A DNA stretch of 59,551 bases from a virus. The position numbers were made by a program, and so were the translations under genes. Below are positions 8,533 to 40,662 of this stretch, in pieces (position 1 is the first letter of the stretch; every line of letters starts with the position of its first letter). Under the pieces are notes generated by a model. It made no database searches and was not told the DNA's origin. It saw nothing but the letters and a program-made list of their open reading frames with translations. The stretch spans positions 1-59,551 of IMG/VR virus record IMGVR_UViG_3300031991_000010; one strand, written 5' to 3'.

Positions 8533-8914
8533 CGCCTCCCACTTTCAAGCCGGTGTCGGCCCCGCCACGCGTCGCGGCGAGCAAGGCAATCTGCACCGCG
8601 CCGCCGCTGATTTTCAACTTCTGCGCGACCACCTCAACGCTGTACCGCTTGTAGAGCTTAACAATCTCCTCCTGATGCACGCGCGCGTTATAGTCGTCGA
8701 CTTGTTGCTCCGTGTGTGGCCGACACCGCACGTCGCCTTTGCCCTTGTTCCACCGCTCGGTGATCAGATAGCGCACGCGCGGCTCGCCAATGCCGGCCCA
8801 CCTGGCGATGGCGTGCGTCGGCGTGCCTTCAAAATAGGCGTTGAAGATGCGCTCATTGCGCGCTGCGCGCTGTGCCTTCAACGCCAAGCTGACCCCCTTA
8901 CCAGACTTAGACAC
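8525..8914 (-). CDS. DNA-binding protein with two HTH-like segments (129 aa)
   Basis: GTG at 8914 preceded by AAGGAGG and a 6-nt spacer. HTH-like stretches THAIARWAGIGEPRVRYLI and VEVVAQKLKISGGAVQIAL. Confidence 0.6.
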   Translation of the reverse strand: MSKSGKGVSLALKAQRAARNERIFNAYFEGTPTHAIARWAGIGEPRVRYLITERWNKGKGDVRCRPHTEQQVDDYNARVHQEEIVKLYKRYSVEVVAQKLKISGGAVQIALLAATRGGADTGLKVGGDA

Positions 8915-9890: not shown

Positions 9891-9893
9891 GGA

Positions 9894-11339: not shown

Positions 11340-12206
11340 CTAGTTTGCGTCTGCGTTTTCTTGTGCCTGATCCTCCCTCGGTTGCAAGTGATTTTCGATC
11401 TGCGGCGACGGCGCATCTTCGCGCGCCGCAATCAGATATGGCTTCAGTTGCGCAAAGCCCTGCCCTCGCGGGTACGGCACGCGCGCCGGAATGTCATAGC
11501 GGTTCTTCGCCACGTATGCCGCCGCCGGTTGCGAATAAATCCACCGCAGTTCGCCGCTCTGCGCAATGGCGCGGGCGTTCTTTTCGGAGCCGAACCCTTG
11601 CGTGTCCTTGGTGATCACCACGTCTTGCTTGATCAGCAAGATCGCATCGACCTCGCGCTCCATGATTGCCGCCGCACGTTTGTGCAGGGAGAGGCCGCGC
11701 CGGTTGAAGGATTGTGATCCCGGCTCATCGACCCGTTCAAGCTCGCTGTGCGCAAGAATGAGCACCGCCATGCCGGTTTCGCGCAGGCGCTTCACGCCAT
11801 CCATGAACTCGGCCCACAGGTAATCGCATTCCTTGTAGCCTTTGCCGTAGCCGGGTTGTTCGATGCTCTTCCACGAGTTGCGCGCACACACCTCGGCTTG
11901 GATCAGCCGCTCAAGCGGACCCGCAGAGTCGAACACGACGGTGAGATAGTCGTGCTTCTCGGTGAGAAGCGAAATCATCGCCTCTTTGATTTCGCCATAG
12001 GAGACAAGTTGCCGCCCGCCCATTACGTCGACGTCGAGCCCTTTGGGAATGCCGGTCTCCGTGAGGATAAACACCGGGCGCGGAAACTCGGCCGCGAGCG
12101 ACGTCTTGCCGAGCCCTTGTTCAGCGTAAATCAACAGCCTTGGCGGCTCCGTCCCGCCCTTCACTTTCTTCAGTGACGCCAAATCGATTGCCATAGTCTT
12201 CTCCAT
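11340..12206 (-). CDS. Sak4-like (AAA_24) RecA-fold recombination ATPase
   Basis: Walker A LLIYAEQGLGKTSLA. Walker B-like VVFDSAG. Synteny with the DUF669 gene. Confidence 0.8.
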   Translation of the reverse strand: MEKTMAIDLASLKKVKGGTEPPRLLIYAEQGLGKTSLAAEFPRPVFILTETGIPKGLDVDVMGGRQLVSYGEIKEAMISLLTEKHDYLTVVFDSAGPLERLIQAEVCARNSWKSIEQPGYGKGYKECDYLWAEFMDGVKRLRETGMAVLILAHSELERVDEPGSQSFNRRGLSLHKRAAAIMEREVDAILLIKQDVVITKDTQGFGSEKNARAIAQSGELRWIYSQPAAAYVAKNRYDIPARVPYPRGQGFAQLKPYLIAAREDAPSPQIENHLQPREDQAQENADAN

Positions 12207-19325: not shown

Positions 19326-19676
19326 TTAGCCAACCGGAACGCTGGCCCCGTCTGGAATGCCGTCCTTACATCGCGTGAGTCGTTCGGCGTTTACATCGTT
19401 GGCGGTGTTAACCGAGTTGAAGCGCATCTGTATCACGGTCAGCGCCCATGACTGCACGACTTCGTTCGGCGCGCCGGCCGGCGGCTTGGCGGGAACCACG
19501 AACCCTTCCGGCGGCTGCGGCCCGAGCGAGCATTCAGCGGGGAGGGGCTTGGTCTCCTGCGCCACCACTGGCGTCTCGATCAGCACCGGGCGCGTCACCA
19601 CTTCCTTCCGGCTCAATCCCAATGTCCCGCAGGAAGCGGTCAGGATCGACAATGAGAGCGCCACCACGGTTCGCAT
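19326..19676 (-). CDS. o-spanin-like outer-membrane lipoprotein (Rz1-like), overlapping the preceding gene out of frame
   Basis: MRTVVALSLSILTASCG lipobox and a Pro-rich mature part. The start lies 143 nt inside 19534..20355. Confidence 0.65.
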   Translation of the reverse strand: MRTVVALSLSILTASCGTLGLSRKEVVTRPVLIETPVVAQETKPLPAECSLGPQPPEGFVVPAKPPAGAPNEVVQSWALTVIQMRFNSVNTANDVNAERLTRCKDGIPDGASVPVG

Positions 19677-20355
19677 TTGCCTCAAGCTCCTTCTGTTTTT
19701 CCCGGCCTGAACGGATGCGCAAACCCTCGGCGCGCCCGCGCTTGAATGTCTCGGCCTCGCTGGCGATTGCCGCCTTTTGCTGCCGTGTGATTGTCTCGTT
19801 TGCCTGCGCCAGCGCCGAACGCAAGCCGCGCTCGGCCTCTTCCCACCCTCGGTTGGCGTTGACGGCGACCGCACTGTTTGCGCGCGCAAGCTCCAACGCC
19901 CTTTCGAGAGAGGGGATGGTGATGATCCGCATCCACAGCGCCCACGCGAGCACCGCCGCGAAGATCGCCAGGCCGGCGAGCGTCAGCCACACGGGCGTGA
20001 GGAAGGTCGATGGCGCAAACAGGGTGGTCGGCCGAGCCGCCATGACTCCCTGTAGCTGGCCCATTTCGCTGTTCACCTCGACGGTCTTCTTCTTCATCGA
20101 CAGATGAATGAAGCGGGTGAGGTAGCTGATCGACTTGCGCCAGGCGTCGAGGCTCGTGAGATACCACGCGCGCACGGGCGGGAAGACGAGCGACAAACGC
20201 CACAGGAAGAACAGCGCAATCACGGTGGCGAAAACGACGAACCACACACCCTTGATCGCAAGGAAACCGACCCCGAGCACAGCCAAGATCATGTAAACTT
20301 CATTGCCGAACCCATCGGCGAAGCTCTTTTCACTGGTGATCGGTTCTTCTTCCAC
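19534..20355 (-). CDS. Membrane protein with C-terminal i-spanin-like coiled coil (possible holin/i-spanin composite)
   Basis: 273 aa. Two N-terminal TMs, an internal Met (MKKKTVEV...) followed by a third TM, and the coiled coil ERALELARANS...ANETITRQQKAAIASEAETFKRGRAEG. Confidence 0.6.
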   Translation of the reverse strand: MEEEPITSEKSFADGFGNEVYMILAVLGVGFLAIKGVWFVVFATVIALFFLWRLSLVFPPVRAWYLTSLDAWRKSISYLTRFIHLSMKKKTVEVNSEMGQLQGVMAARPTTLFAPSTFLTPVWLTLAGLAIFAAVLAWALWMRIITIPSLERALELARANSAVAVNANRGWEEAERGLRSALAQANETITRQQKAAIASEAETFKRGRAEGLRIRSGREKQKELEANANRGGALIVDPDRFLRDIGIEPEGSGDAPGADRDASGGAGDQAPPR

Positions 20356-25847: not shown

Positions 25848-28800
25848 TTACTGGCGGTCGCGCATGAGCCCTTCCTCGTAGAACATGCCGGGATCGTCCA
25901 TCGGGCCGGGCGCGCGGCCGGTGAAGACGTCGGCGATGTAGTCGAGCGTGATCACCGCCTGGCGCGTCGGCAGGGCGAACCAATAGCCGGCCGTCATCAC
26001 CCCCTTTTTGCCGATCTTTTCCCACTCGTCGTCGGCGATATAGCCGTCTTCGTACACCTTGCCGCCGAGCTTCACGAAGTCCGCCGTCGTCGACATGGCG
26101 TCGCTAACGGGGGTGATGCTGTAGTCATAGGGTGAGAGCACCGCTGACACGAGATCGCGCACGCCGATGATCGTCGAGAGCGGGTAGGCGGCCACGGTCA
26201 TAATCACCCGCTTCAGCCTGTCGTCTTCGTCTTCGCCATTCTCTGCGTCGAGCCGGCCGCCGATGGCTTCCGACAGGATTGCCGGCAAAATCCACAGGAA
26301 GAGGGTGGCGTTGACGAACGATGAACGCGGGATGCGCCCGGTTGCGGCGCCGGGAAATTGCTCGCCGAACAGTTGGTTATAAAGCACGCTCATGTACGAG
26401 TAGAATTGCGTGAACAGCCGCATGCCCTCGCCGCCGCGCTGAAGGCGCGCCAGGTCTTTCGGGGAGCCCGAGCCCTGCGTCATGCGGATCACGCTGTCGG
26501 CGTGCTGCACGGCCGCATCATCGTCGCCCATCTTCACGTTGCTGATCTTTCCGCCGAGCGCTTGCTCGTAAGCGGTCAACCACACGGGCACAGACACGCC
26601 CATATCCATGATCCCGGTCAACCAGAAGAAGGAGCGGCGCACCTCAATCGGCACGATATCCCAATCCTGTCGCCCCTTGATCGATTGAAGCGCGTCGCGC
26701 ACGTCTCGATCCCATGTCGTCATCCGGTAGCGCAGCACGGCGCTCTTATCGAGCGCGAACTGAACCCTCCTCGGGATCACCTGCGGCTCGCCAAAGAACT
26801 TCCGCACTTGGTTCGGCAACGCCTGCGCAATGACTTGCATGTCGATGGACGCGGCGCGGCCCATGGATTTGGTCAGGCCGATGACGCCGATTCGCGGCAC
26901 CGCGCCGAGCATGCCGAGCGGTTGCACGATGGCCGTCGTGATCTTCATCCCCATGTTGACCACCGACGATCCGGTGCGCAGGCGAGAGAGAACTTTCTGG
27001 TAGGCGTTAGACGGATCGCGCACGTCGGCCGCCACGTTTTGAAGCCATGCGTTAATCTGGCGGTACTGTTGCGTGCCGGCGGCATCCTTGATCGCCGCGA
27101 TCATCTTGGGGTGGTTCGCCATGCGATAGACGTCGATCAGCGCACGGCGGTGCGTGAGATCGTGGATCACGTTATAGACGTGCTCCTGCATCACCATGAG
27201 ATCGAGCTTCACCGGCAAGCCGCCCGATCCGACGCGCTCCTGAAGGTGGCCCTTCTTGGTCTGCGGTCTGATCCAGTTGCCGCCCTTGGCGTCGAGCGTG
27301 ATAATCTTCTCGTCGCGCTTGTTGACCTTCTCGCTTTGCGCGCCGTCATACTTCAGCGGGTAGTAGCCGCCCGCGAAGATGCCATGTTTAGAGATCACGG
27401 GCGTAGCCTGCACGGCCGCCGGCATAACGCCGGTCAGTTCGTATTGCAGGGCGAACGACGGCTCACGATATTCGCCGATCCAATCCCAAATCGATTGCAC
27501 GACGTTCCAGTCGCGCGCCGTGAGGTGCGTGTCGAGAATATCCATGATCTCTTCGGGCGACTTGCCTGTGCCGTCCGCGACCGCCTTGACGTTGCCCTCG
27601 TTTCCCATGTTGAGCGCGAGCGCGATGATCTGCGATTTGGTCAGCGCATAGCCCTTGCCGAACTCGGGCATGCTGATCCGCTTCGACATGAGCGCGCCGC
27701 GCTCGATGCGCGTGTAGACCGAGAAAATCTTGTTCAGCCTGGCCGCCGCGACGGCGCTCATATCAAGCTCGGCTTCCTCGGCGCGGGCGATGGGTTGGAA
27801 CATGTAGCGCTGCACAGGGCCGGCGTCTTCCAAGCCGTCGAGCCACCGGAAAAGAAATTCGGGCTTGGTGTGGTCGGCGTGTGCCAGTTCGCGGAAGTCA
27901 TCGAGCTTGTCGAGCGCCGAGAGCGCGCCCTTGTCGCGCGCCTTTCCGCCTGGCGCATGGTTGGCGATCTGCGTCGTCATTTCGTCGATGGCGGCGCTCA
28001 TCGTCGCCTTGTTACGGGCGTCGAGGAGCTTCTTGGAATTGCGCGCGATGTGGTCGATGTTGCGGATGGCGTCGACCACCGCCTCGGCATCCGTGATCGG
28101 CATCTTGGTCAGTTCGCTCGCCGGCATTGCCACGATGGAACCGGGGATATCGAGCATGTGGCCCATCCCCATATCCTCGATTGTCTGCATCCACTCGCCG
28201 AGCGATTGCTCGCCAATGATGCGTGGCGCAAGCTCGGGCGAGATACCGAACTTCACGAGGAGTTGGTCGATCTGATCGCGCGCCTCGTTGTCATAGTTCT
28301 TGCGCGTCTTCTCGTTGTCGAACTTCTTCGTCCACCGCACGCCGGCCTCGAACCGCTCGGCGCGGTCGCGCGCAATGCGGTAAATGTGGAACGACATAAG
28401 CTGACGCGACTTCGCGCGCTCGGCCTCGGGGAACTTGCCGTCGCGGTAGAAGTCCTGCGCCTCTTTCGCGGCCTTCCGCTCGGCGCGAAGGTATTGCTCA
28501 AAGTTCAGCACCTCGCGCACCATCATGCGGTCGACGTGCGCCTCGGCCAGCTTCTTTGCGGCGCGGATCAGCACGTTCACCCGGTTGCCGGTGGCGCGGC
28601 CAATCGCTTCAAGCTCGATCTCGATCTTGCTGGCGGCGGCCATGTTGTGCGCGGCGCGCTTGGCAAGCTCGTCGACCGTGCCATCAAGGAACGGATCACT
28701 CAAGCCGTCGCTCTGAAGGCTAGCCTGCACATGATCCTCCACCGCATCCTTCAAGCGGGGCAGGGCGGCAAGTTCCTTCACAAGCTCATCGCCGCTCGTG

Positions 28801-31800
28801 TAGTCGAACACCGCGTGCATGTCGCGCAACGCCTCGATAGCGTCGTCGGGGTGCAAGCCGTCGTCGGCCATGGCGGCGCGCAGCTTCTTCGCTTGCTCGC
28901 GCCACAGTTGGCGCATCACCTTGCGGTTCAGCTTGATCGGCTTCAGCCCCGCAGGGCGCGGCTCGATGGCGGGATCGTCGGGCGCGCCAGGCTTAGACTG
29001 AAAAAGCGCAAACCCCTGCGTCGTGATCTTGGCGCGCATTTCCGGCGTGATCTGCATCACCCAAGCGCCGGCAACGTCGCCCTTCTCGATGACGTCATGT
29101 AATGCCTGATTAATCGCGCCGCTATCTCCTCCGGCCGCTGAAATCAATTCTGCGAATGCGCCGTCTTCATCCCACAGCATCGCGCCTTGCACCCAAATAT
29201 GGTAAGCGGCGACAAGCGGGTTTCTCTTGGCATCGTGCTTAAAATCCCATTCATACGAGTCGAGCGACACACCTTTGTCGTCATTGCCGGGGCGGCCTTT
29301 CGAGGCGACGAAAAACTCGCCGTCGTCGGTGCGACGCATAAGCGGCATGTTGCGACGAAGCGCAGACTTAACTTCGGTCGACATCCTATCCCACAGCGAG
29401 TGAAGGATTGCCTCGGCGGAGTTTGGATCGACAGGCCAGTCGGCAATGCTGTAAAACTCTCGATCCAGCGCGCTACTGCGCTCTGCGATGCGGCCGAAAA
29501 GCTCTTCTCTCTCAGCCTTCAAACGCTCTATATCGTCGTTCAGAGAAGAGCGCGGCGCGACGTACTCTTCAATCTGCTTCTGCGCTTTGGCGGCAGTTAT
29601 CTTTCCATCATTGGCTTCTTTCAGACGCTCGCCCGCATACTCCGCCTTCATGCTGTTGCGCTCGATCATGCGCGCGCTGTTGGCTTCTCCAAGAAGATCG
29701 TTAACCTCAGACCATCGCGGCTCGATTTCGCGCCACAGGGCGTTTTTCTTGTCAGTTAGTGCGTCAAGTTTTGTGCTGCGGCTCGGGTCATAACGATTGA
29801 ACCGCTCGATCAGTTCGAGCTTGTTCGCCGCGATGTGCTCGATGACGGCCTGTTTTAATTGCTCGCCGCGCGCCTTCGTGCCATCGAGCAATTCACTTAG
29901 TCCGACATAATCAAACTCGGCGCGCTTAGGCGTCACGCCATCAGCGCCTTTCAAGATTGCATCGCGCGCCGCTTTCCAGCCAAGTCCCCACGTGTGATCG
30001 GAAACCTTCAGCGCGCTTTGTTCGACGGCGGAATAGAACCCCATGGGGTCAAGTTGGCGCGACTGCCCCATGCTCCGCTGCGGCCACAGGATATCATCGA
30101 CGTCAGCGAACGTGTTATCGGTCGCCTGAAAGCGATCTCCAATGCGGCGGAAAGCGCCCGTGCGCACCTCGGCGCCGTGACCTTCACGGCCGCCACTCTC
30201 GAACAGATAGCCTTCCGGCAACAGACCAAGCGACTTCAGCGCGCCCGCCATCTTGTCGTGCAGTACGCCGCTTGGCGCGACGTACACGCCGCCTTTGCCA
30301 TCTGCGATCCATCGCGCGCTATCGTACTCAAACGGCCGTGCGCCGTTGGCGCGCTGCATCAAAGTCGGCGACGTCATGCGCGTCACTTCCTCGCGTGACG
30401 GGTTGTGGATCATCGTCACCGCCTCGCCCATGTTGTTCTGCACGGTGAACTTTCGCGCCGGGGCCGACTGCCCCATCGTCCCGCCGCTGTCGCTCTCCCA
30501 CGCGATCAGTTGCCGTTGCAGGCGCGTGCGTTGCGAGGGCTCCGTTGCGCGTGCCTCGGCAACCGCTTGCGCGTACTCGTCGGTGCCGGGCTCCGGCGTC
30601 ACGGCGATGGCGCGGTTGCCTTTTTTGGCCCACCCGCGCATGTCTTCGCTGTAGTCTTCAATATTGCTAATTAGCGCGGAAGCACGGCGACGTTGATCGA
30701 GCGCCTTGTGCGCACGGTCAAGATCGTCTTGCGTCATGCGGATCGTCGGGATCGCAATGCGCATCAGCGCCGGCTCACGAGCCAGCACATTTTCGGCTGA
30801 AGTCTGGGCGAGGAAGGTGTCTTGCGTCTCGAACGCTTCCACCTCTCCAGACAGAAAGCGGTAAAGCACTGCGTCATTGTCAGGATCGAGTCCGAGTGCG
30901 CGGATATCCGCTTTCAGTTTTTTTCGTTTGGCAGGCTCTAGCATATCCATGAACACCGCCGCGTGCGAAGACGCGCCGCCGATATGGAAAAGCTCGATGT
31001 ACTGAATGATGTGCTGAAGTTCATGGATCAGCCCGCTCATCACGCGAACCATGTTGTCGTCACGGCCAATGATAATCTGGTTGACGCCGCGCGCATGGTG
31101 GATGGCGGCGGCGTTGCCGGGGCCATAACCATCCCAAAAAATGACTTCGACGTTTCGCAGTTCAGGGTAGGCGTCAAACAATTCAGAGTGCGAAATGACA
31201 TCGCCGAGCAGCACGCGCATATCGAAATCCGCGCGCTGATTGAGCGAGGCGGAATAGCTCAATAGTTCACGCACGTTGGCGCGCGTCAAGCCGCTGCGCT
31301 GCCACGCTAGTTGCGCAGCGTCCATGATCTTGACGAACGTGTCCTGATTGAACGTGAAACGCACGTCTTTGTCAGAAATCCAGTAACGCCATTCACCGTC
31401 TGTTGGCGCGCGATACCATCCGAATGCTTTCAGGATTTCGCCCATCGAGACGCCGGCGGCCTCGGCCGCCTTCGCGCCCGCGAGTTTGGATCGGTTGGCC
31501 GTCTTGGAGTAGGTTCCGGCCCACTGCCCCATCGTCTCGATATCGTCGCCGTACTCGATAGCGTCGTCGATCTCGGCGTCGGTCACGTCGTCCGCCTCGG
31601 TCGCCGCGTCTGGCCCTGCGGCGCCGTCTTCCCACACGCCGCGTTCAAGCAATGCCTTGGCGCGATAGCCGCGCTGACCGCGCAATTCGAGGAGGGCGGT
31701 GCGGCGACGACGCGCAAGCTCGCGCTGCCATGAGAGCGTCTGTTCGCGGTAATGCGCACGCATGACGCTGGCGAGAAGATCGTCTTCAGACTGCGCGCGG

Positions 31801-33800
31801 GCGTTGTCGATGGCGGCCAGGTAGCCCCTCCACTTGTCTTCCGACATGCCGGACTCTTCGCGCGTGGCGAACATCTTGTCGCTGACCGCCTTGTTGGCGT
31901 TTTGCATCGCGGCGATTTCTTCCTCGGTGGCGAGGAGGCGGTCAAACAGGCTTTTCGCTTCCGGCGTCAGAAGCGTCGTCGCACCGTCTTCGCCGACGAT
32001 GCGCTTGAGATCGGCATAGATTTTCCGCAACCAACGGGAGAACGCGCGGAACGGCGTCACGAGCGCGAGTGAGGGGGCGACGCCTTCACGGAGGTACGCC
32101 TCGAACGTCCGCGCCCATAGCTCATGGTGGCGCACCTCAATGCGCTGACCGGGCGCAAGCCCCATCCAGTCGCGGATTTCCTTCAGATAGCCATGGATCG
32201 GCGCGTCGGGCGGCGCGTCGCGTGCAATCGATTGCACAAGCTCAAGATACCAGTGCCCCGCTTCGTGCAGGATGGTCGACTCGTCGCGCCCGCTGAACAG
32301 CCGGATCGCCGTCCATTCACGCTGTTCGCCGATGGCGTCACGATAGGCGAACTCGCCGCGCCGCTTGCCGCTGTCTTCCGCCTGGCCGAGATCAACAAGG
32401 CTCTCGATGGCCTCGCGCATTTCACCGATGTTGGTCGCGGTGCCGAGCGAGCCGTCAACGCGCATGCTCTCATACTCGCGCGTGTCCATGCCGAGCGCGC
32501 GCATTACCTCGCCGTGGTCGACGGAGGTGTTCGCATCCCACACAAAGAGCGCGTCATCGAGCTTCAGAAACTTGACGCCGATCCTCCGCTCGTTGCGCGG
32601 GAGGTGCATCCACTCCTTGTTCTGGCGCGCGATGATGCGTTCCGCCGGGAGCGTCGAGCGGGTGATCGTGATCTCGGCGTCGCGGATCGTCAGCGCCAGC
32701 GGCGAGCGGTCAGTGCGCCGATTCGACTGGCCCATGGAGTGCTGACGCCAGCCCGGCTTGTTGCCCGGCTTAGATTTAGTGACCGTCAATCCAAGTTCTT
32801 GCAAGTCGCGGACAATGGAACCTTTGCTGATCCCAAACTTGCGCGCGAGCGACGAGATCGTCGCTCCCTCTTCCGCCGCTGCCGCTGGCATTGCGGCGCG
32901 ACGCGCCTCCGTCCCCAAGCTCTGCATCGTCTTTAGCCCGAGAAACTGAAGATCGTTCTTCACCGTCATCGTGGGAACGCCGAGCTTTTCCGCTATTCCT
33001 TCTGGCGACAAGCTAGTGTGCCAGCGCTTTACCTGTGCGCGTCGTTGTTCAATGTTGCGGGGCGAAAATGTCGGTCTGAAATCTTCTTGCCCCGCCCACG
33101 TCAAGCGACCACCCGCGCCCGATCCACGTCGGCGCATGCGACCATCGTCGTTGCGATACATCGCGCCGATGACGCGGCCAGCGTTTACGTCAAGATCGCC
33201 GGCAACCTTATCGGCGACTTCCTTCACCGAGTAGCGCGGATAACCTTGATCGTCGCTCTCATTCCAGTAGGCGATGGATTTCTCGTAAATCTTGGCCGTC
33301 ATCGGATCGACGGGTTTCGATCCCTTCTCGCGCGCAAGAAGAAACTTCACCATCGGCTCGCTGATGCGCATGGTGCGCGCAATGCCGCGCACGGTTGCGC
33401 CGTCCGACTCCATCTTCTTCACTTTGTCCGAGCGCGTTTTCAGCATCGCCCGCACGGAACCACTCACTGTTTCGAGGCGGTCGGCGATCTCCTCGTTTGT
33501 GAGATCGTCCATCGCCAACGAGACGGCCTTGCGCCAGTCGCCGCGCGCAAGCTGGCCCATGGAGCCTTCAGTCAACGCGGCGTCTTGCGATCCGCTCACC
33601 TCGGCAAGCACGCGGTCCGCCGCGTGCATCGACGCCGCGTTAACACGCTCGGCGTAGGAGAGCGCGCGCCACGACGCGCGGTTCGCGCGCGAGAGCGTGC
33701 GCATCGAGAACTCGATCTCGCTCTCGATCATTTCGACTTCCGCCATCTTGGGCGCGTAGCCGGTGACTGCGGCGACGCGATCTTTGCAGGCGGCCTTCAT
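25848..33800 (-). CDS. Giant polyvalent internal/ejection protein (2650 aa)
   Basis: N-terminal repeated HTH modules. Two HExxH motifs: HEAGH at 32253..32267 and HELQH at 31011..31025. The second lies in a domain paralogous to one in the 1762-aa protein. Several C-terminal TM helices. Confidence 0.85.
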   Translation of the reverse strand: MKAACKDRVAAVTGYAPKMAEVEMIESEIEFSMRTLSRANRASWRALSYAERVNAASMHAADRVLAEVSGSQDAALTEGSMGQLARGDWRKAVSLAMDDLTNEEIADRLETVSGSVRAMLKTRSDKVKKMESDGATVRGIARTMRISEPMVKFLLAREKGSKPVDPMTAKIYEKSIAYWNESDDQGYPRYSVKEVADKVAGDLDVNAGRVIGAMYRNDDGRMRRRGSGAGGRLTWAGQEDFRPTFSPRNIEQRRAQVKRWHTSLSPEGIAEKLGVPTMTVKNDLQFLGLKTMQSLGTEARRAAMPAAAAEEGATISSLARKFGISKGSIVRDLQELGLTVTKSKPGNKPGWRQHSMGQSNRRTDRSPLALTIRDAEITITRSTLPAERIIARQNKEWMHLPRNERRIGVKFLKLDDALFVWDANTSVDHGEVMRALGMDTREYESMRVDGSLGTATNIGEMREAIESLVDLGQAEDSGKRRGEFAYRDAIGEQREWTAIRLFSGRDESTILHEAGHWYLELVQSIARDAPPDAPIHGYLKEIRDWMGLAPGQRIEVRHHELWARTFEAYLREGVAPSLALVTPFRAFSRWLRKIYADLKRIVGEDGATTLLTPEAKSLFDRLLATEEEIAAMQNANKAVSDKMFATREESGMSEDKWRGYLAAIDNARAQSEDDLLASVMRAHYREQTLSWQRELARRRRTALLELRGQRGYRAKALLERGVWEDGAAGPDAATEADDVTDAEIDDAIEYGDDIETMGQWAGTYSKTANRSKLAGAKAAEAAGVSMGEILKAFGWYRAPTDGEWRYWISDKDVRFTFNQDTFVKIMDAAQLAWQRSGLTRANVRELLSYSASLNQRADFDMRVLLGDVISHSELFDAYPELRNVEVIFWDGYGPGNAAAIHHARGVNQIIIGRDDNMVRVMSGLIHELQHIIQYIELFHIGGASSHAAVFMDMLEPAKRKKLKADIRALGLDPDNDAVLYRFLSGEVEAFETQDTFLAQTSAENVLAREPALMRIAIPTIRMTQDDLDRAHKALDQRRRASALISNIEDYSEDMRGWAKKGNRAIAVTPEPGTDEYAQAVAEARATEPSQRTRLQRQLIAWESDSGGTMGQSAPARKFTVQNNMGEAVTMIHNPSREEVTRMTSPTLMQRANGARPFEYDSARWIADGKGGVYVAPSGVLHDKMAGALKSLGLLPEGYLFESGGREGHGAEVRTGAFRRIGDRFQATDNTFADVDDILWPQRSMGQSRQLDPMGFYSAVEQSALKVSDHTWGLGWKAARDAILKGADGVTPKRAEFDYVGLSELLDGTKARGEQLKQAVIEHIAANKLELIERFNRYDPSRSTKLDALTDKKNALWREIEPRWSEVNDLLGEANSARMIERNSMKAEYAGERLKEANDGKITAAKAQKQIEEYVAPRSSLNDDIERLKAEREELFGRIAERSSALDREFYSIADWPVDPNSAEAILHSLWDRMSTEVKSALRRNMPLMRRTDDGEFFVASKGRPGNDDKGVSLDSYEWDFKHDAKRNPLVAAYHIWVQGAMLWDEDGAFAELISAAGGDSGAINQALHDVIEKGDVAGAWVMQITPEMRAKITTQGFALFQSKPGAPDDPAIEPRPAGLKPIKLNRKVMRQLWREQAKKLRAAMADDGLHPDDAIEALRDMHAVFDYTSGDELVKELAALPRLKDAVEDHVQASLQSDGLSDPFLDGTVDELAKRAAHNMAAASKIEIELEAIGRATGNRVNVLIRAAKKLAEAHVDRMMVREVLNFEQYLRAERKAAKEAQDFYRDGKFPEAERAKSRQLMSFHIYRIARDRAERFEAGVRWTKKFDNEKTRKNYDNEARDQIDQLLVKFGISPELAPRIIGEQSLGEWMQTIEDMGMGHMLDIPGSIVAMPASELTKMPITDAEAVVDAIRNIDHIARNSKKLLDARNKATMSAAIDEMTTQIANHAPGGKARDKGALSALDKLDDFRELAHADHTKPEFLFRWLDGLEDAGPVQRYMFQPIARAEEAELDMSAVAAARLNKIFSVYTRIERGALMSKRISMPEFGKGYALTKSQIIALALNMGNEGNVKAVADGTGKSPEEIMDILDTHLTARDWNVVQSIWDWIGEYREPSFALQYELTGVMPAAVQATPVISKHGIFAGGYYPLKYDGAQSEKVNKRDEKIITLDAKGGNWIRPQTKKGHLQERVGSGGLPVKLDLMVMQEHVYNVIHDLTHRRALIDVYRMANHPKMIAAIKDAAGTQQYRQINAWLQNVAADVRDPSNAYQKVLSRLRTGSSVVNMGMKITTAIVQPLGMLGAVPRIGVIGLTKSMGRAASIDMQVIAQALPNQVRKFFGEPQVIPRRVQFALDKSAVLRYRMTTWDRDVRDALQSIKGRQDWDIVPIEVRRSFFWLTGIMDMGVSVPVWLTAYEQALGGKISNVKMGDDDAAVQHADSVIRMTQGSGSPKDLARLQRGGEGMRLFTQFYSYMSVLYNQLFGEQFPGAATGRIPRSSFVNATLFLWILPAILSEAIGGRLDAENGEDEDDRLKRVIMTVAAYPLSTIIGVRDLVSAVLSPYDYSITPVSDAMSTTADFVKLGGKVYEDGYIADDEWEKIGKKGVMTAGYWFALPTRQAVITLDYIADVFTGRAPGPMDDPGMFYEEGLMRDRQ

Positions 33801-33809
33801 GCGATGATC

Positions 33810-36800
33810 CTATTCTTCGGGCGGCATTTCCAATGGGGCATCCGCCGGAACGGGGAGCGGGTTGCCGCTCGGCTTCCTGTCGAAACCGGGGCTACCCTCA
33901 TCGCCTAAATCCCGTGGTGCATCCATCCGGTCAAGGCGAGGATCGCTCGAACGTGCGGCGCGCGCCCCGCCCGACCATGACGACACCGGCATCAGCGTGT
34001 TTGGATAGCCGTCGTCTTCCGGCGTGAAGGTGGGGAAACGCACCTCATCGGGCGGCAGTTTTTGCCATTCGTCACGCATCCGGCGAAGCACCTCCTGCGG
34101 CGACGCCATTTCGCTCAGTTCTTCCATGTTGCCGGTGCGCATAGCGTTGTCGGCCTTGAGCGGCCGCAGGAAAGCCAGCCCGAGCGGGAGCGCGGCGCCG
34201 GCGGCCAGCGCGTTCCCGGCCATCAGGTTGGCGACCGCCGCCATGACCGGCCCCCCCGCCGCCGCGCCGGATGCGCAGGCGCCGGCCTCGCGGATCGCAT
34301 GGGCCAGCACCGCCGCGTTCTCCCGCTCGATGGCAATGGTCCGTTCGTCGGGCCGGCGGCGCTGCGCGGGCTCCTGTGGCCGGCCAGGCTGGCCCATGGT
34401 GGCGTCGACCCCGCCGGCATAGCGCTGGCGGCCTACAGGGCGCACAGAGAGGAGGGTTTCGAGAATGTCGGCGCTGACGCCGTAATCGGCTTGAAGCGTC
34501 TCCACGGGCACGCCTGTGCGAATGCGGGCGCGAATTGTGGTGCGCAAGGTGTTCAGGTAGGCGCTGAACCCGAAGCTGTTCAGATCGAGATCGACGGCCG
34601 CGCTCACGTTGGGCGACCGCTCGCCGCGCTCCACGGCCTCGGTGTACGCTAGGATTATATCCTTATCCGTCAGTTCGAGCGCGGCCATGTCGGCGGCGAA
34701 GTCCATGATCCGCTGGCCCATGGTGTTCTCGCCCACGGGGATGGTCGGTACCGCATCGAGATCGACGGGCGCGGCCGGCGGCGCCGGCTCGACGGGGAAT
34801 TCGACCAGCGTCGCGTCAGCATCGTCAGCGGTCGGCGGTGAGATCGAGAGCGGTACGCTGGCGCGTGCGCGGCCCATAGCAATGGTTGTCGGTCTCCAAC
34901 GCGGGCCATCCCAAATCTGCGTCCAGTTGAGATCGGACTCATTCAGCGCGCTCGTGGTCGGTGTGATTCTGGCGCGCTCCTCGGCGGTGAAGTTGGCACG
35001 CTCCTGCACCATGCGCGCTTGCACCTCGCCGCGATTGTGCATGTAGGTGAGGTTCGCGGCGCGGCGGCCGGCGACTCGCGCAACCCAAAGAAGTGTTTTT
35101 TCGTATGACCTCAAATGCCGCTGAATATCCTCCTCAGATAAAATTTTAATCATCGGCTTGCCGTCGTCATCTTCTTTAACGACGTTCCACCCTTCGTTTG
35201 GATACTCAGCAACCCACGTGGCAATCCCGGTGCGAAGAACTTCCTCGTGCTTCTTCATTTCCTCGACATGCATTGATCGAGAAAACTTCAATAACAATTC
35301 TTGAAAAAGCGGAACATTCTTAATGCGCGCATCAGCCGGATTGGCACCCCGCGACCACCCTTCGATCACTTGGATTGCGTGCTGCACCTCGTGCAGCATC
35401 GTCGAGCGCAACACCTCATCAATGTTATTCTTGGCTCGAGTTGAGAAGTTGATCTGGATCACGCTGCGCATGCGCAGCCCACCCTTGTCGTCGCGGAACG
35501 ACATGCCGTAGAGATCGAACACGCCCGCGCCGTTGCGGTTGGCGTCGCGGGAGAACTTCACGCGCACGTCGCGCAGTTGCGGGTACTTCTCAAACAGCGC
35601 AGGAAAATCAATCACCGTTTCAAGCGGGAGATCATCGACGACGTTCTTGCCCTTCAGGATTTCTTGAAGATGCGCGGTGCGCATCGTCATCTGACTGGCG
35701 TCAAGCTCCATTTGCCAATCGTCAGCCTTCGGGCCGAACTTGTTCCAGCCGGTCGCTTCCCAAATGTCGTCGGCGCTTCGTCCATCGCGGAACATCTGCT
35801 GCGCGGTGTTGAGATCGGCGGCTTCCTTGTCGGTGAGGCCGGACATGACGCCGATCATCTGGCCCATCAGGTTTGGGCCGTCATAGTCTTCGTTGAAAGC
35901 GGCGGTTTCGGCGCGCACTTGGTTGTTCGAGAAAACGATATAGCTGTCTTTTGCTTTGACCTCTCGAAAGGTGTTAGCCTTTTGCTCAATTTCTTTTAGC
36001 GCGATGTATTCAGGCGTTTGCTGATCCGATTGATCATAGGCATTGAGCGGCTTACCGCGTGCGCGTTGCCCCTCAGTCATCGCGCGGCGCGCGGCGTCAA
36101 CTTGCAGTTGAAGTTCTTGCGCGCCTTCAACTTCGCCTGTGTTCTTATAGACGATGCCGTCATAGCCGAGCCTGATAAGCAAATCTTGCAACGCCTTTAC
36201 CGCACCTGCGGAGTTTCTTATGCCTCGCGTCGCGGCCCGCATTGCCTCTTTGGAGATTCCGGCCCTCTCCAAACCATACTCTAAATTATCATCATTCCAC
36301 GCTCCCATGTCGTCGGTGCGCAGGGGGTTCTTCAACCTCAATCGAACTGGATACATAACAGCACTGTTCGGGTCACGTTGCGCGCGCTGACGTGTCGACA
36401 GATAGTCAATCCGATCTTGCGCCTGGCCGGCGGTTCCGAAGTGAATGCCGATATCATTCAACTTTCTTTTGAACTTGAAGATATCTTTGTCGGTCGCATG
36501 ATACGCCTTGACCGTGAACCCCATCCTCTCCGCACGCGCCAACCTGGCTGCCGTCGTCATCCCTTCGGGGCCATACTTTCGATAGGCCGAGATCCACTCG
36601 GCCGCCTCGCCGCGATCCGCGCCGTCATAGCCAAGCGCCTTGGCTTGCTGCATCGAGCGCTCTGTCGCCGCCTCGCTCGGCATGGCGCCGGGGCGCATGG
36701 CGCGGGTTTCCGCTTCGCGGATCAGGCGGTTCGCGCGCGACTCTGCGGCCTTCTTCTGCGACTTGGAAAGCACGTCGAATTGCGAAATGCGGGTGTCGAC

Positions 36801-39098
36801 GCCTTCCTTGCCGAGCGCCTTGGCGGCAAGGGCGTGGCCGAGGGCGTCGACCGGATCGGCGTCGGCGTGCGCATTGTCGTCAGCGATCTCGGCGTATTCA
36901 TTGGCGACGAACGCGCGGCGCTCTGCGATCTCTTCCGCCTTGGGGAAGCGCAGCGCCGAGCGGTTCCAGTCGTGCTTGCGCCCCCGCGTGTCGGTGAGAT
37001 CGCTGATGATCTCGGTGCGGTGTTGGCTCCAAATCTCGGCGACCGATTTGCGATCCTCGGGGTTCTTAGCCGACATGGCTTGCAGCGCTTTGATGCCGGC
37101 GAACACCTTGGCGAATTGCGTGTTCATTTCCTTACCGAAGCGGCGGCCCGGTTCGAGCGCGTTCAGTTGTTTTTCAATGCCTTCAATGACGGCAAGCGTT
37201 TCCGCGTCTTCCGCCGGCATTTGCTTTTCTGTTTTCTTAACTTCCTCGCGGATGCGCTCAAGGTCTTCTGCGCCCTCCACCATGCCGGCGTGGATTTCAG
37301 CGATACGCTTCTCGGCCTCGGCGCGCACGATCTCGTTTTGCGCCGCCGTGTTCGTCTCGGGGTCGGTGGTGATGTGGCGCGCCACCTTCGGGCCGAACGA
37401 TGTGCGGCCGATCTTGGCGGCGTAGTCGCCTGGCGTCATGGTGAGGAAGCCTGACGCGCGCGCCGACGCGACGAGATCGGGATCGAGCCCGAGCGCTTGC
37501 GTCAGTTCGTCGAAATTCATATTCTCGTCGGCGGCCATTTTCTGAAGGCCGTCCATGTTCACGAGGATTTCGCCTTGACCCAAGCTCGCATCGACGGAAT
37601 CAGCGAAAGCCTCGGGGTCGCGCTTGGCGAGCTTCGACTGACGGGCTACCTCACTCAACCGTTCGACGGTGCGAAGCGAGGCGGCTATATGGTCCGCTTT
37701 CCGAAGATCGCTGTAGAGGCCGGGCGCGCCGAACGCAGCCCCCATGCCGCCGCCGATGAACAGACCAATGAACGCCTCATAACCGGCGTCACCGAACGCT
37801 TTATTCCAATCGAGCGGACCAATGTCGTCACCATAGACCGCACGGTTCAGTTCGCGCCCCTTCGCCTCGAAGAAGCTCGTGACGAGGCTCTGCGCGCCCT
37901 CCTCGATAGCCCCTTCAAATATCGCGCCCTTGACGACTTCTTTTCCAAAGCGCGCAGCGACCGCGCGCCGCGTCATGCTTTGGGTAGCCTCACGACTTAC
38001 GGATCGAATCGGTGACCCCATCGCCATGCCGCCGAACTGTTCGATCATCGAGTTGGCGACACCGGCAGCGTGCGCCATTTCAGCGGCGAGTTTCGGATTG
38101 ATGCCCTCGTTGACGTATTGCTCGAACGCGTTGCCGCTTTCGAGGCGGTAGCTGAAATCAGCCGACGCCGCAGACGGGGCAATGAAGCCCGTTTTGGTTC
38201 CTGAAAACCACGAACCGACTTCGCCAATGAGCGGTGTCGCGGCGGCCGTGAGCCCCATCCATTCGCCGAGCGCCAGGTCGACGTAATCGTCGAGCGTGCC
38301 GCGTCCGCTCTCGATGTTCGTGCGGGCACGGTTGCGCACTTGCGCAAACATCGTGCTCGTGTCGTCAGCCTGGCCGCGCCAAATGTCATAGGCGCTGATG
38401 AACGGGCCACCGACGCGCGCGCCCATGCCGGCAATGGACGAATGCGCCGCCTCGAACACGTCGCGCGCCACGGGGTTCTTGAGGCCGCGCTCGCGCAGCG
38501 CGTCGCGCTCGGGGCCAATGGCGAGAAGGCGACGGTAATCGGAGGGCGCGAAGACATTCTCACCCGTGCGTGTTTCACGTGAAACGTCGGCGAACAGATC
38601 GCCGCGCTCGGTGTTCAGCATGCCAGCGCGATAGCTCGACACCGCGCCGGCCGGATCGGCGACCGCAGAGCCGAGGGTGTCGCGGGTGTTGCGCACACCG
38701 CGCATATAGCTGAAGACGCCACGGCCGGCCGCGCGCCGGATGCCCTCGGGCACGAACGGCGCGAAGTCGTCGAACATGCGTTCGGCGCGTGACAGGTGCT
38801 CGACGTCATCGTGCGCGACGGCGAAGTTCTCAGGCTTGGAGAGCCACGCCCGCGTGCGCGGGGGCGCTGCATCGAGCGTCGGTCGCTCGGTTCCGCGCGC
38901 CATGAGGAGCGGATTGCCGATCACCTGACCGGGCGTAGTGTTTAGTTCCTTTGCGATCCGGCGCGCCTGGCCGATCTGGTCGGGCGTATAGATCGACGTC
39001 GCCATCGGCCCGAAACCGTCGTTGGCCGGCTCGGGCATGGTTGTGTCGCGTGGGCGGTGAATACCAAGCGGATCGTCGTCACGTTCAACGTTCGCCAC
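33810..39098 (-). CDS. Giant polyvalent internal/ejection protein (about 1762 aa)
   Basis: GTG at 39098 sits 6 nt after GGAGG (or ATG at 39038). ART-like segment AYHATDKDIFKF...IGIHFGTAGQA...LGYDGIVYKNTGEVEG (about 36120..36525). Zincin MLHEVQHAIQVIEG (35379..35393). Hydrophobic Ala/Gly-rich C-terminal helices. Confidence 0.85.
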   Translation of the reverse strand: MANVERDDDPLGIHRPRDTTMPEPANDGFGPMATSIYTPDQIGQARRIAKELNTTPGQVIGNPLLMARGTERPTLDAAPPRTRAWLSKPENFAVAHDDVEHLSRAERMFDDFAPFVPEGIRRAAGRGVFSYMRGVRNTRDTLGSAVADPAGAVSSYRAGMLNTERGDLFADVSRETRTGENVFAPSDYRRLLAIGPERDALRERGLKNPVARDVFEAAHSSIAGMGARVGGPFISAYDIWRGQADDTSTMFAQVRNRARTNIESGRGTLDDYVDLALGEWMGLTAAATPLIGEVGSWFSGTKTGFIAPSAASADFSYRLESGNAFEQYVNEGINPKLAAEMAHAAGVANSMIEQFGGMAMGSPIRSVSREATQSMTRRAVAARFGKEVVKGAIFEGAIEEGAQSLVTSFFEAKGRELNRAVYGDDIGPLDWNKAFGDAGYEAFIGLFIGGGMGAAFGAPGLYSDLRKADHIAASLRTVERLSEVARQSKLAKRDPEAFADSVDASLGQGEILVNMDGLQKMAADENMNFDELTQALGLDPDLVASARASGFLTMTPGDYAAKIGRTSFGPKVARHITTDPETNTAAQNEIVRAEAEKRIAEIHAGMVEGAEDLERIREEVKKTEKQMPAEDAETLAVIEGIEKQLNALEPGRRFGKEMNTQFAKVFAGIKALQAMSAKNPEDRKSVAEIWSQHRTEIISDLTDTRGRKHDWNRSALRFPKAEEIAERRAFVANEYAEIADDNAHADADPVDALGHALAAKALGKEGVDTRISQFDVLSKSQKKAAESRANRLIREAETRAMRPGAMPSEAATERSMQQAKALGYDGADRGEAAEWISAYRKYGPEGMTTAARLARAERMGFTVKAYHATDKDIFKFKRKLNDIGIHFGTAGQAQDRIDYLSTRQRAQRDPNSAVMYPVRLRLKNPLRTDDMGAWNDDNLEYGLERAGISKEAMRAATRGIRNSAGAVKALQDLLIRLGYDGIVYKNTGEVEGAQELQLQVDAARRAMTEGQRARGKPLNAYDQSDQQTPEYIALKEIEQKANTFREVKAKDSYIVFSNNQVRAETAAFNEDYDGPNLMGQMIGVMSGLTDKEAADLNTAQQMFRDGRSADDIWEATGWNKFGPKADDWQMELDASQMTMRTAHLQEILKGKNVVDDLPLETVIDFPALFEKYPQLRDVRVKFSRDANRNGAGVFDLYGMSFRDDKGGLRMRSVIQINFSTRAKNNIDEVLRSTMLHEVQHAIQVIEGWSRGANPADARIKNVPLFQELLLKFSRSMHVEEMKKHEEVLRTGIATWVAEYPNEGWNVVKEDDDGKPMIKILSEEDIQRHLRSYEKTLLWVARVAGRRAANLTYMHNRGEVQARMVQERANFTAEERARITPTTSALNESDLNWTQIWDGPRWRPTTIAMGRARASVPLSISPPTADDADATLVEFPVEPAPPAAPVDLDAVPTIPVGENTMGQRIMDFAADMAALELTDKDIILAYTEAVERGERSPNVSAAVDLDLNSFGFSAYLNTLRTTIRARIRTGVPVETLQADYGVSADILETLLSVRPVGRQRYAGGVDATMGQPGRPQEPAQRRRPDERTIAIERENAAVLAHAIREAGACASGAAAGGPVMAAVANLMAGNALAAGAALPLGLAFLRPLKADNAMRTGNMEELSEMASPQEVLRRMRDEWQKLPPDEVRFPTFTPEDDGYPNTLMPVSSWSGGARAARSSDPRLDRMDAPRDLGDEGSPGFDRKPSGNPLPVPADAPLEMPPEE
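38572..38585. repeat. Perfect 14-bp palindrome GTTTCACGTGAAAC (copy 2)
   Basis: Inside the 1762-aa gene, where it again encodes VSRET. Confidence 0.9.
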
Positions 39099-40662
39099 GC
39101 GCAGCCTCCACTTCCTTGTCATACGCCGCGACGACTTCAGCCTTGGTTGGTGCGCGCCGCAGGCGTGCAGCCTCGGCGTTACGGATGCGCGCGCGGTCGC
39201 TCTGCGGCATGTATTGATAGCGCACGTTCGCCTCGCGTGCGTTTTCATTCATGTAAAGCGGGCGGTTGTTGAAGTCAGCAAAGGCGCGATTGAGAATGTC
39301 TTGCTGCGCCGCGTCGTCAGGGATCGCGCCGCCATTAGCCTTCATATAGGCTTCCACGTCCTGAATGACGAACGCCTTGAACTGGTTAAATCGCGGACGG
39401 TCCTGCGCATTGTTGCTGATCGTCATGTTCACGCCGCTGCGGCCAGGCGCAAGCATCTGGCCGGTGGAAATGATGCGCTCGGTCACTTCTTGCTGCACGG
39501 TTTTGCGGCCTATGTCCGTGCGCGCTTCAGAACGTGCACGCTCACGGTAGCCGCGAAGCTGTGCGTACTGACCCGGCGTCAGTTGTCCGGCGTATTTTTC
39601 CAGATTGCCGGGCGCGACGAACGCCTCGCGGTTTTCATCCATCGAGACAAGCAGGCTGTTGTACGTGTCGGTACTCACGCGGTCGCGGGAGGCGCGACCA
39701 CGCTCGCCGAGCATGTAGGCGTGATCTGCTTTTTGCTGGCGCATTTGCAGAATGGCGTTGCGTAGATCGGCGTTCTCGGGCGCATCGTAAGCGGTTTGTT
39801 GTTCCGGCGTGAGGGGCGTGCCCTCGTTAACCCACGCCATCGCCGCATCGGTCAGCGCTTCAAGCTGCAAACCCTCGGCTTGTTTGTCGCGCGCGGCCTC
39901 TTCCATGATCCGCGTGGTGACTTCCTCGCGCACCTCCGGCGGCAACGTGCGCGCCTCGGCAAGCTGGCCGGCGAGATCGTTCGGGTGTTTGCCACGCGCC
40001 GCGTCCACGGCGCTGATGACTTGCTGTTCGCGGCCGATCTTGGCCTGGCGCGCCGCGAGCGTGCCCTCAACCTCGGCATCCACACGGGCAATGTCGTCTT
40101 CGCCGACAAAGCCCCGCTGACGGCCAAGGCGCACCACGGCCATGGCATTTCCCTTCAACCGCTCAAGCTCGGCCTGTGACGTCTGCGGGTCCGCTGCGGC
40201 GCGCGTGAAAGCCGCCTGTGCGGCGATGATCGCGCCGCGCTCGATCTCCGCGCCGCGCTCAAGCCCGAGGCGTTGGCCGCGCTGGCGGCTCTCGCTTTCC
40301 AGCCTGACGCTGTTATCGTTCCACTTCTGCGCCGCGATCAGTCCGCCGATCCTCGGGCGATAGCGCGCCGTCGTTTCGCGCGCGATGCGGCCGGCGTGCG
40401 CCTCGAACTGATCCCAATCGTCTTGCTTGCGCAGTTCGATCATCTGCCGATCAATGTCGGCCGCTGCGTCGGCGTTGGCTTGCAAAATCGAACTGTCGAT
40501 CTGTTGTTTGCGGATGCGCGAACCAAGCTCATAAAGCGCCTCGCCGCCCTCGGCCATCTGTTTGCCGGCGTCGCTGACCGGCTGTTGCACGACGCGCAGC
40601 GACGGGCTGACGCGGGCTGCGTTCGGATCGATCTCCTCGTAAGTGCCGCCGATCTTCGCCAT
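39085..40662 (-). CDS. Internal virion protein (525 aa, helical)
   Basis: The ATG at 40662 overlaps the upstream stop. Position equivalent to T7 gp15. Gln/Arg/Ala-rich helical sequence. Confidence 0.65.
   Translation of the reverse strand: MAKIGGTYEEIDPNAARVSPSLRVVQQPVSDAGKQMAEGGEALYELGSRIRKQQIDSSILQANADAAADIDRQMIELRKQDDWDQFEAHAGRIARETTARYRPRIGGLIAAQKWNDNSVRLESESRQRGQRLGLERGAEIERGAIIAAQAAFTRAAADPQTSQAELERLKGNAMAVVRLGRQRGFVGEDDIARVDAEVEGTLAARQAKIGREQQVISAVDAARGKHPNDLAGQLAEARTLPPEVREEVTTRIMEEAARDKQAEGLQLEALTDAAMAWVNEGTPLTPEQQTAYDAPENADLRNAILQMRQQKADHAYMLGERGRASRDRVSTDTYNSLLVSMDENREAFVAPGNLEKYAGQLTPGQYAQLRGYRERARSEARTDIGRKTVQQEVTERIISTGQMLAPGRSGVNMTISNNAQDRPRFNQFKAFVIQDVEAYMKANGGAIPDDAAQQDILNRAFADFNNRPLYMNENAREANVRYQYMPQSDRARIRNAEAARLRRAPTKAEVVAAYDKEVEAARGER

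Follow-up and report, generated by a model that had tools for sequence, protein, structure and literature searches.

The virus record IMGVR_UViG_3300031991_000010 of IMG/VR, a stretch of 59,551 nt analysed here at its full length and called the window, carries a 55-bp exact direct repeat at its two ends (positions 1-55 are identical to 59497-59551) and is thus a complete, circularly closed genome of about 59.5 kb. Two adjacent giant genes, here called B (upstream, 1762 aa) and A (downstream, 2650 aa), lie co-directionally on its minus strand and together take up 13.25 kb of the 59.5 kb, or 22% of the genome. The original prediction, made from the sequence without database searches, had described two giant open reading frames (ORFs) of these sizes that share a metallopeptidase-like domain; its coordinates agree with ours, and the start that it gave for B, at 39098, is a GTG with a GGAGG Shine-Dalgarno (SD) sequence. 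Positions of all features of the locus are collected in Table 1.

The GTG at 39098 is the best start for B: the GGAGG lies 6 nt upstream and the resulting gene overlaps the stop of its upstream neighbour by 14 nt, whereas the gene caller behind the protein database used M43 instead, giving 1770 aa. Residue numbers of B labelled ORF refer to the full open frame, 33810..39248, which is 1812 aa at most. The ATG of A has an AGGA SD 7 nt upstream, located within the last codons of B. A similar arrangement is found in the metagenomic locus L004, where P0215, a B ortholog with 39-50% identity to B, ends in ...PEE-TGA and, 3 nt on, an in-frame ORF starts MKAECKTRVSAV..., matching the N-terminus of A (L004 10147-10155). 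Both B proteins end in ...PEE, and it is the PEE codons that form the SD for A. In the more distant locus L006, an A-type protein, P0088, is preceded by a B-type gene with an ATGA overlap, out of frame; P0088 has the same N-terminal module as A, followed by the HEAGH domain, two LPD23-zincins and the C-terminal domain described below. Since A and B are in frame in the window and in L004 but not in L006, read-through is not required. We conclude that the two-gene split, as judged from the sequences, is genuine and kept in both metagenomic relatives, and predict that B and A are a translationally coupled pair. Reassignment of the stop codon at the B/A border was also considered and was rejected, because the window's other genes are intact and the stop in the relatives is TGA or an overlapping one.

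The two proteins contain paralogous copies of one module, as had been proposed: A 752-949 aligns with B 1123-1309 (ORF numbering) at 25% identity (BLASTP E 3e-5), and both proteins match the Pfam family LPD23, at scores of 39.5 and 31.4 bits that exceed the cut-off of 27. Alignment with homologs from other giant proteins divides the module into two parts, namely LPD23 (phi-x-Q-F/W-A-G ... TGW..G.DG.WR.EI.D) and then a HExxH domain. Invariants of the HExxH part are L..Y(P), HExQHxIQ, GG and Y...GE.EA, with H, E, H and GE invariant in 17 aligned modules. Word-index homolog searches gave almost nothing for B and for the zincin profile, and it was exhaustive HMMER searching that recovered the family, P0215 and P0088; the exhaustive search returned 12,199 representative clusters with the LPD23-zincin module, which occurs in up to seven copies per protein.

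Within the family, Pfam DUF6782 ('putative metallopeptidase family') was detected in 11 of the 17 aligned homologous modules (best E 7.7e-7), together with a few weak Peptidase_M78 and SprT-like matches. An AlphaFold2 (AF2) model of the copy in A, built on the 17-sequence alignment, reached pLDDT 76 and pTM 0.74 and has three strands, then the HExxH helix (161-180) and further helices. An earlier AF2 model, for which five sequences were aligned, reached a poor pLDDT of 51, and its Foldseek result was meaningless. Foldseek searches of the better model against PDB gave a list whose top consists mostly of IrrE/PprI-type HExxH proteins, at E-values that are not significant (best 0.13), and against BFVD 17 matches at E <= 1e-3 that, where named, are phage LPD-containing proteins. 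When all parts of A and B were searched against PDB sequences with phmmer and profiles, nothing was found at E <= 0.1. The family-level DUF6782 matches, the invariant motifs and the IrrE/PprI-topped Foldseek list support the assignment of the shared module as a putative zincin. The assignment is well supported by motif and family, in keeping with the metallopeptidase resemblance originally noted, and the fold of the window's own copies, resting on the motifs, the family-level DUF6782 matches and a non-significant Foldseek result, is not proven.

Protein A contains a second type of HExxH domain, the HEAGH domain (A 480-735), which is unlike the LPD23-linked one. All three HExxH motifs lie exactly where they had been placed, and the second one of A, also part of the original prediction, turns out to belong to a separate, family-conserved domain. 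It is present in 65 of 65 family relatives with S, H, E, H, E, A, E and Y invariant; H27, E28, H31, E75, E82 and Y84 of the domain are invariant over 14 sequences, and the same motifs are kept over 66. Comparison with Pfam and PDB produced sub-threshold peptidase hints only (M78 0.032, M3 0.032).

Further modules surround these domains. The LPD22 domain of B scores well above its Pfam cut-off. Downstream of it, the ADP-ribosyltransferase (ART)-like segment anticipated in the 1762-aa protein is recognized by ART-PolyVal (PF18760) with 22.4 bits in the whole protein and 28.1 bits as an isolated segment (E 4e-6), below the cut-off of 31.2, but it shares 39% identity (E 1e-28) with a domain whose ART-PolyVal score is 51.5 bits, and the same position of the ortholog P0215 scores 44 bits, above the cut-off. 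Its yHgT (H917), Y949 and g.DG (D1030; ORF numbering) occupy conserved columns in an alignment of 101 related domains, consistent with the H-Y-D configuration of the ART clade of polyvalent proteins (Iyer et al. 2017; PMC5512222); the strand assignment of these residues is a putative one. Where at least three N-terminal helix-turn-helix (HTH) modules had been expected in the 2650-aa protein, we found four within A 81-355, three of them above Pfam cut-offs (Sigma70_r4_2, 40 bits; HTH_23, 39.7 bits; HTH_11, 30.9 bits) and the fourth weak and GerE-like. Over its first 80 residues A resembles the N-terminal ends of proteins in two further PHROG families, one of which carries the annotation 'virion structural protein'; a tblastn search with the same 80 aa against phages gave nothing. 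At the other end of A, the suggested cluster of transmembrane helices was confirmed only in part: four segments are moderately hydrophobic, and a single one of them (2495-2513) is strong and kept in relatives.

The HEAGH and C-terminal domains of A belong to the family PHROG 9880, which the C-terminal domain matches with E 3e-235 (family positions 1206-2222) and the HEAGH domain with E 1.6e-47 (positions 940-1202). By tblastn, the HEAGH and C-terminal blocks were found in 88 phages, including BPP-1 (Bbp10), Pseudomonas phage AF (gp16), Xanthomonas Cp2 and Caulobacter phages. In most of these phage proteins, as in most of the 66 metagenomic homologs, which reach 4445 aa, a single polypeptide has an N-terminal LPD22 followed by variable PBECR nuclease, ART, LPD23 and HTH modules and then by the HEAGH and C-terminal domains. 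The window departs from this plan at two places: LPD22 is on the separate upstream gene B rather than at the N-terminus of a single polypeptide, and the HEAGH domain, contiguous with the C-terminal domain in relatives, is separated from it by an insertion of ~890 aa that splits the family core and consists of the LPD23-zincin module and the modules A 1109-1243 and A 1244-1621. Because LPD22 is on B and the rest of the core, with its ~890-aa insert, on A, we assign B + A as a predicted split, cargo-expanded version of one Bbp10-type giant protein. Bbp10, AF gp16 and Cp2 ORF24 (= ΦXacm4-11 gp35) resemble the pair in their homologous HEAGH and ~1000-aa C-terminal domains (28-36% identity, E down to 1e-167), in their N-terminal LPD22 and in their place in the structural module after gp14/gp15-like genes. 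They differ from it in being one protein of 2052-2300 aa with one variable module (PBECR1 in Bbp10, LPD23-zincin in AF), whereas the window has two genes and 4412 aa with an ART, two zincins, four HTHs and the ~890-aa insertion. Searches of IMG/VR and JGI metagenome contigs with A, B and the B/P0215 alignment gave none or one distant match, and the paper on phage Ab31 has no proteomics for its homolog.

The minus-strand genes follow one another as terminase (small, then large), portal, capsid, tail tube B, two proteins of 205 and 563 aa, B, A, a tail fibre of collagen-like type and a tail spike. Weak similarity links the 205-aa protein to AF 'internal virion protein B' and the one of 563 aa to Bbp11; at the locus of a relative, P0004, a Pfam T7_gp14-like gene lies two genes upstream. 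The portal (48478-50211) has at most 22.6% identity to any of 50,697 deposited phage genomes, and megablast of the 13.4-kb giant-gene region against these 50,697 records gave no nucleotide-level match; by its gene sequences, the phage is a novel podovirus of a deeply divergent lineage. A 2026 preprint on the Cp2-like phage ΦXacm4-11 treats gp33/34/35 as positional analogs of T7 gp14/15/16, reports core density above the portal and found no structural match for gp35, which has 2,300 aa. The T7 gp14-gp15-gp16 genes likewise stand between nozzle/tail-tube and fibre genes, although A and B are far larger and carry effector modules; a lytic transglycosylase domain, as in T7 gp16, was not found in A or B. 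The gp15/gp16-type position proposed originally is supported by synteny, not by homology.

The content and position of the pair are those of the polyvalent proteins of Iyer, Burroughs, Anand, de Souza and Aravind (2017; J Bacteriol 199:e00245-17; PMC5512222). B combines LPD22, ART-PolyVal and LPD23+HExxH, A combines four HTHs, HEAGH and LPD23+HExxH, and both sit among virion genes, between tail tube B with the gp14/15-like genes and the tail fibre. Like the proteins of that class, this is a giant multi-domain product encoded next to virion genes, with LPD22, LPD23, an ART-PolyVal with H-Y-D residues and more than one HExxH domain per locus; the role proposed for the class is that of early effectors delivered with the DNA and possibly self-processed by their metallopeptidases. 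What sets the window apart is the conserved use of two genes, cargo placed inside the family core, and an explicit [ST]-M-G-Q boundary signature. N4-like vRNAP and P1 DarB/DdrB are also large and carry metallopeptidase domains, some of them ART domains as well; they are packaged in the capsid and injected early, and P1 DdrB is proteolytically processed. RNA polymerase, methylase and helicase modules of such proteins are not present here, and homology is confined to the shared LPD/ART/zincin module types. We assign B/A to the phage-type polyvalent proteins at the T7 gp16 position, as the families LPD22, LPD23 and ART-PolyVal indicate and as the original prediction had proposed; since this kind of protein has been described, the pair would not constitute a new system. 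Three observations go beyond that prediction, namely that B + A correspond to one protein in relatives, that the split is conserved, and that [S/T]MGQ stands at module boundaries.

The tripeptide MGQ occurs five times in A against 0.27 expected and three times in B against 0.15 (8 versus 0.43 in total), and S or T precedes it at seven of the eight sites. Its coding form ATGGGSCAG is present 11 times in the window (0.74 expected), of which eight are in frame within A or B. Codons vary synonymously among the MGQ sites (Gly GGC/GGG, Ser TCC/AGC, Thr ACC/ACG), indicating that the constraint acts on the peptide. All eight sites fall at module boundaries: one follows the N-terminal module of A, just past where the PHROG match ends, and the others stand behind the HTH array, in front of each LPD23, around small modules of unknown function and behind the ART. 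With the looser pattern [ST][LM].Q, 11 matches are obtained compared with 1.9 in shuffled sequences, which adds SLGQ and SMQQ in B. Two other explanations of the repetition were rejected: a DNA-level element, given the variation of the Gly, Ser and Thr codons, and a tandem repeat, since MGQ is dispersed whereas, for comparison, the PMLT motif of P0062/P0063 is an 18-aa tandem repeat. The only in-frame MGQ in a long ORF outside A and B (NSEMGQLQG, 20056-20064, minus strand) is in a 273-aa ORF of unknown function (19534..20355) downstream of the tail-spike genes and lacks a preceding S/T.

As the metagenome searches returned no close relatives, conservation of MGQ was judged in P0215, P0088 and the L006 protein alone. 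In P0215 the junction Q is kept at five of five B junctions, against a 40% baseline for Q, and two residues before it an M or L is retained, even where the linker has gaps and is otherwise poorly conserved. At equivalent places TLNQ, TFEQ, TLFQ, TLEQ and ILAQ occur in P0088 and the L006 protein; overall, the junction positions are conserved in orthologs as [ST]-[LMF]-x-Q. In alignments the MGQ before LPD23 coincides with the beginning of that domain, which is conserved across the family as phi-x-[QS]-F-A-G and recurs in thousands of proteins (e.g. RFS-FAG, LNQ-FAG, LFQ-IAG). When the literature was searched for the junction strings and for Bbp10 or processing, nothing relevant came up, nor any described junction or cleavage consensus; Iyer et al. 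(2017) proposed zincin-mediated processing and described no site or boundary motif. We regard the junctions, with moderate confidence, as candidate processing sites.

A longer element was seen in other giants. The 23-aa 'QIKSAxgNnGxFdxxNPDIRFS' recurs five to seven times per protein at module ends in P0107 and P0124, with 35 matches in 148 proteins versus 2 in shuffles, and the local equivalent in B reads '...QVRAETAAFNEDYDGPNLMGQ'. Since the element partly coincides with the conserved C-terminal strand of ART-PolyVal-type domains, it is weaker evidence for a general junction.

Table 1. Features of the B/A locus of the window (functional names are predictions from sequence)
Feature	Position	Strand	Remarks
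Gene B, 1762 aa	33810..39098	-	LPD22 N-terminus, Gly/Ala-rich hydrophobic segment, ART-PolyVal, LPD23-zincin, small module, hydrophobic C-terminus
Gene A, 2650 aa	25848..33800	-	N-terminal module, HTH array, HEAGH domain, inserted modules, conserved C-terminal domain
B/A junction	33801..33812	-	...PEE-TAG stop of B, 9-nt spacer, in-frame ATG of A; SD of A within B's last codons
LPD22 domain of B	38766..38990	-	Pfam PF18834, E 4.6e-11, 43.3 bits (cut-off 28.6); also N-terminal in Bbp10 and AF_016
ART-PolyVal-like ADP-ribosyltransferase module of B	35868..36515	-	candidate H 36498..36500, Y 36402..36404, D 36159..36161
LPD23 + HExxH zincin-like module of B	34722..35867	-	HEVQH 35379..35393, downstream GEVQA
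C-terminal modules of B	33813..34721	-	108-aa HTH-like module, then 195-aa tail; Gly/Ala-rich hydrophobic segment 34158..34286 kept in orthologs
80-aa N-terminal module of A	33561..33800	-	phrog_684 'virion structural protein', positions 1-71, E 5.8e-12; common to P0088 and the L004 ortholog
Array of four HTH modules, A 81-355	32736..33560	-	units 33441..33533, 33342..33416, 32958..33050, 32793..32873
HEAGH...HELWARTFEAY domain of A	31596..32363	-	HEAGH 32253..32267 (A aa 512); family-conserved; second type of HExxH domain; phrog_9880 positions 940-1202
LPD23 + HExxH zincin-like module of A	30477..31532	-	HELQH 31011..31025 (A aa 926), downstream GEVEA 30834..30848; paralog of the B module
Two inserted modules of unknown function, A 1109-1243 and A 1244-1621	28938..30476	-	coiled-coil-like stretch in the latter
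Conserved ~1000-aa C-terminal domain of A	25851..28937	-	Bbp10/phrog_9880 family; phrog_9880 E 3e-235
Hydrophobic segments of the C-terminal domain of A	26874..26963, 26574..26630, 26262..26318, 26139..26216	-	
Junction SMGQ (A 80-83)	33552..33563	-	
Junction SMGQ (A 355-358)	32727..32738	-	
Junction TMGQ (A 756-759)	31524..31535	-	LPD23 start
Junction TMGQ (A 1108-1111)	30468..30479	-	
Junction SMGQ (A 1243-1246)	30063..30074	-	
Junction-like ALFQ (A 1598-1601)	28998..29009	-	before C-terminal domain; TLFQ in P0088
Junction-like SLGQ (B ORF 555-558)	37575..37586	-	VMGQ in ortholog P0215
Junction-like SMQQ (B ORF 865-868)	36645..36656	-	before ART module; orthologs TMKQ, TLEQ
Junction LMGQ (B ORF 1127-1130)	35859..35870	-	ART end / LPD23 start
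Junction TMGQ (B ORF 1509-1512)	34713..34724	-	
Junction TMGQ (B ORF 1617-1620)	34389..34400	-	

The junctions can be read in several ways. [S/T]-[L/M]-x-Q may be a self-processing site, such that the LPD23-linked zincin would dock its own phi-x-Q-F/W-A-G start and cut the tetrapeptide elsewhere, turning the ~4400-aa pair into about ten effectors after ejection; we put this forward tentatively, as a possible but rather doubtful mechanism. Alternatively, phi-x-Q could be an uncleaved structural or evolutionary boundary element, either a first strand or a shuffling seam, in giants that act intact. An uncleaved seam would suit three facts: the AF2 model shows MGQWAG, where LPD23 begins, as ordered at high confidence; thousands of proteins conserve this position as part of their LPD23; and several metallopeptidase-bearing polyvalent proteins, e.g. 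N4 vRNAP, are known to be delivered unprocessed. Yet six of the eight MGQ sites precede sequence unrelated to LPD23, the sites lie in G/S/T/D/P-rich segments otherwise poorly conserved between orthologs, and four-residue identity at eight unrelated boundaries is what would be expected of a shared recognition site, so that we judge this alternative, too, to be possible and on balance doubtful. That the HExxH modules are instead effectors cutting host defence or envelope proteins, with any processing left to another protease, appears rather unlikely. Such a role is among those listed for metallopeptidases by Iyer et al. (2017; PMC5512222), and the closest relatives by structure and Pfam, weak as the matches are (IrrE/PprI M78, SprT), have other proteins as their substrates; however, between portal and capsid no gene for a prohead protease or any other protease is evident, so that within the structural module the three HExxH domains alone are protease candidates, and the LPD23-zincin module itself has the junction motif as its conserved N-terminal beginning.

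Two further alternatives concern the reading of the genes. It is very unlikely that [S/T]MGQ marks internal translation starts, or relict start codons of fused genes, with nested separate products: every site does contain an ATG, purine-rich stretches lie upstream of a few (e.g. GAAGG before 33560), and modules of the Bbp10-type family have clearly been shuffled and fused, but most sites have no consistent, correctly spaced SD, and internal starts would account neither for the conserved S/T that precedes the Met nor for the G-Q that follows. Moreover, orthologs have L or F in place of M (ILGQ, TLNQ, TFEQ, TLFQ), and the LPD23-family equivalents are R-F-S or L-x-Q, without Met. The notion that B and A are one gene, interrupted by a sequencing error or by a stop subject to programmed read-through to give a ~4400-aa fusion, draws on the shared frame of the TAG of B and the ATG of A 9 nt away, on the equally in-frame TGA + 3 nt of L004, and on the single proteins of up to 4445 aa in relatives. 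We consider it highly improbable, because a stop and restart is kept in two independent relatives with different stops, out of frame at the ATGA of L006, because A is preceded by an SD of its own and begins with a module that other families share at their N-termini, and because no other gene of the window has an in-frame TAG problem.

The reading we favour for the locus as a whole, and consider probable, is that the coupled B and A form one polyvalent protein, made of core and cargo, that would be packaged, ejected and processed by its HExxH domains. In the virion the pair would belong to the core of the capsid, and it would be ejected before the DNA or together with it; indirect support for packaging comes from its ΦXacm4-11 homolog, a core-protein candidate. 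Its core (LPD22, HEAGH and the C-terminal domain with its hydrophobic segments) may help to build or cross an envelope conduit, the ART would modify a host target early by ADP-ribosylation, and the HTH array, including the sigma region-4-like unit, may bind DNA or the transcription machinery/RNA polymerase early. The three HExxH domains would free the modules by cutting between them, at the [ST]-[LM]-x-Q junctions.

Several results weigh against this reading. The window's own two module copies match LPD23 only and not Pfam DUF6782, the Foldseek comparison with PDB was not significant, and the ART-PolyVal score of B itself is below the cut-off. No Pfam, PHROG or PDB match links A or B to T7 gp15/gp16 or to any solved ejectosome. 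MGQ itself is absent from more distant family members, and in the AF2 model the MGQ start of LPD23 is ordered (pLDDT ~92) and not an exposed linker. Phage N4 vRNAP, ArdC and TraC1 carry metallopeptidase domains yet are transferred unprocessed (Iyer et al. 2017; PMC5512222), which means that a zincin does not imply self-cleavage.

Outside the B/A locus, the tail fibre (23571-25805) has a collagen-like Gly-X-Y stretch at aa 264-289 and a weak CBM_5_12 hint. A 517-aa protein (16143-17696) matches PHROG 22485, of unknown function, with E 1.5e-114 and is a conserved phage protein without annotation. The replication module (1360-12206) comprises an 801-aa primase, a 940-aa helicase, a Cas4-domain exonuclease (8907..9890) and a Sak4-like annealing protein (11340..12206); when the larger ORFs of the window were scanned with PHROG, no RNA polymerase was matched. 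Among the small genes that lie upstream of the terminase genes there is a 47-nt direct repeat (56677-56723 and 57112-57158, 89% identical, 435 nt apart), which may be a repeated regulatory element.

The polyvalent protein class itself is already known; the new feature is the recurring junction signature, which above all gives the locus its value, next to the divergent phage and the conserved two-gene architecture. Here the polyvalent strategy, with a single injected chain bearing many early effectors, occupies the gp16 position in a podovirus lineage that has diverged deeply, and the locus illustrates how such giants grow: a conserved core takes up cargo cassettes and can split into two coupled genes. 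The junction tetrapeptide offers a cheap and concrete handle on the proposed zincin processing of giants. If the proposal is true, it would be the first defined cleavage consensus for the very widespread metallopeptidases of polyvalent proteins (>12,000 representative clusters), and cargo boundaries would become predictable from sequence, so that single anti-host modules such as the ART and the HTH array could be delimited and expressed.

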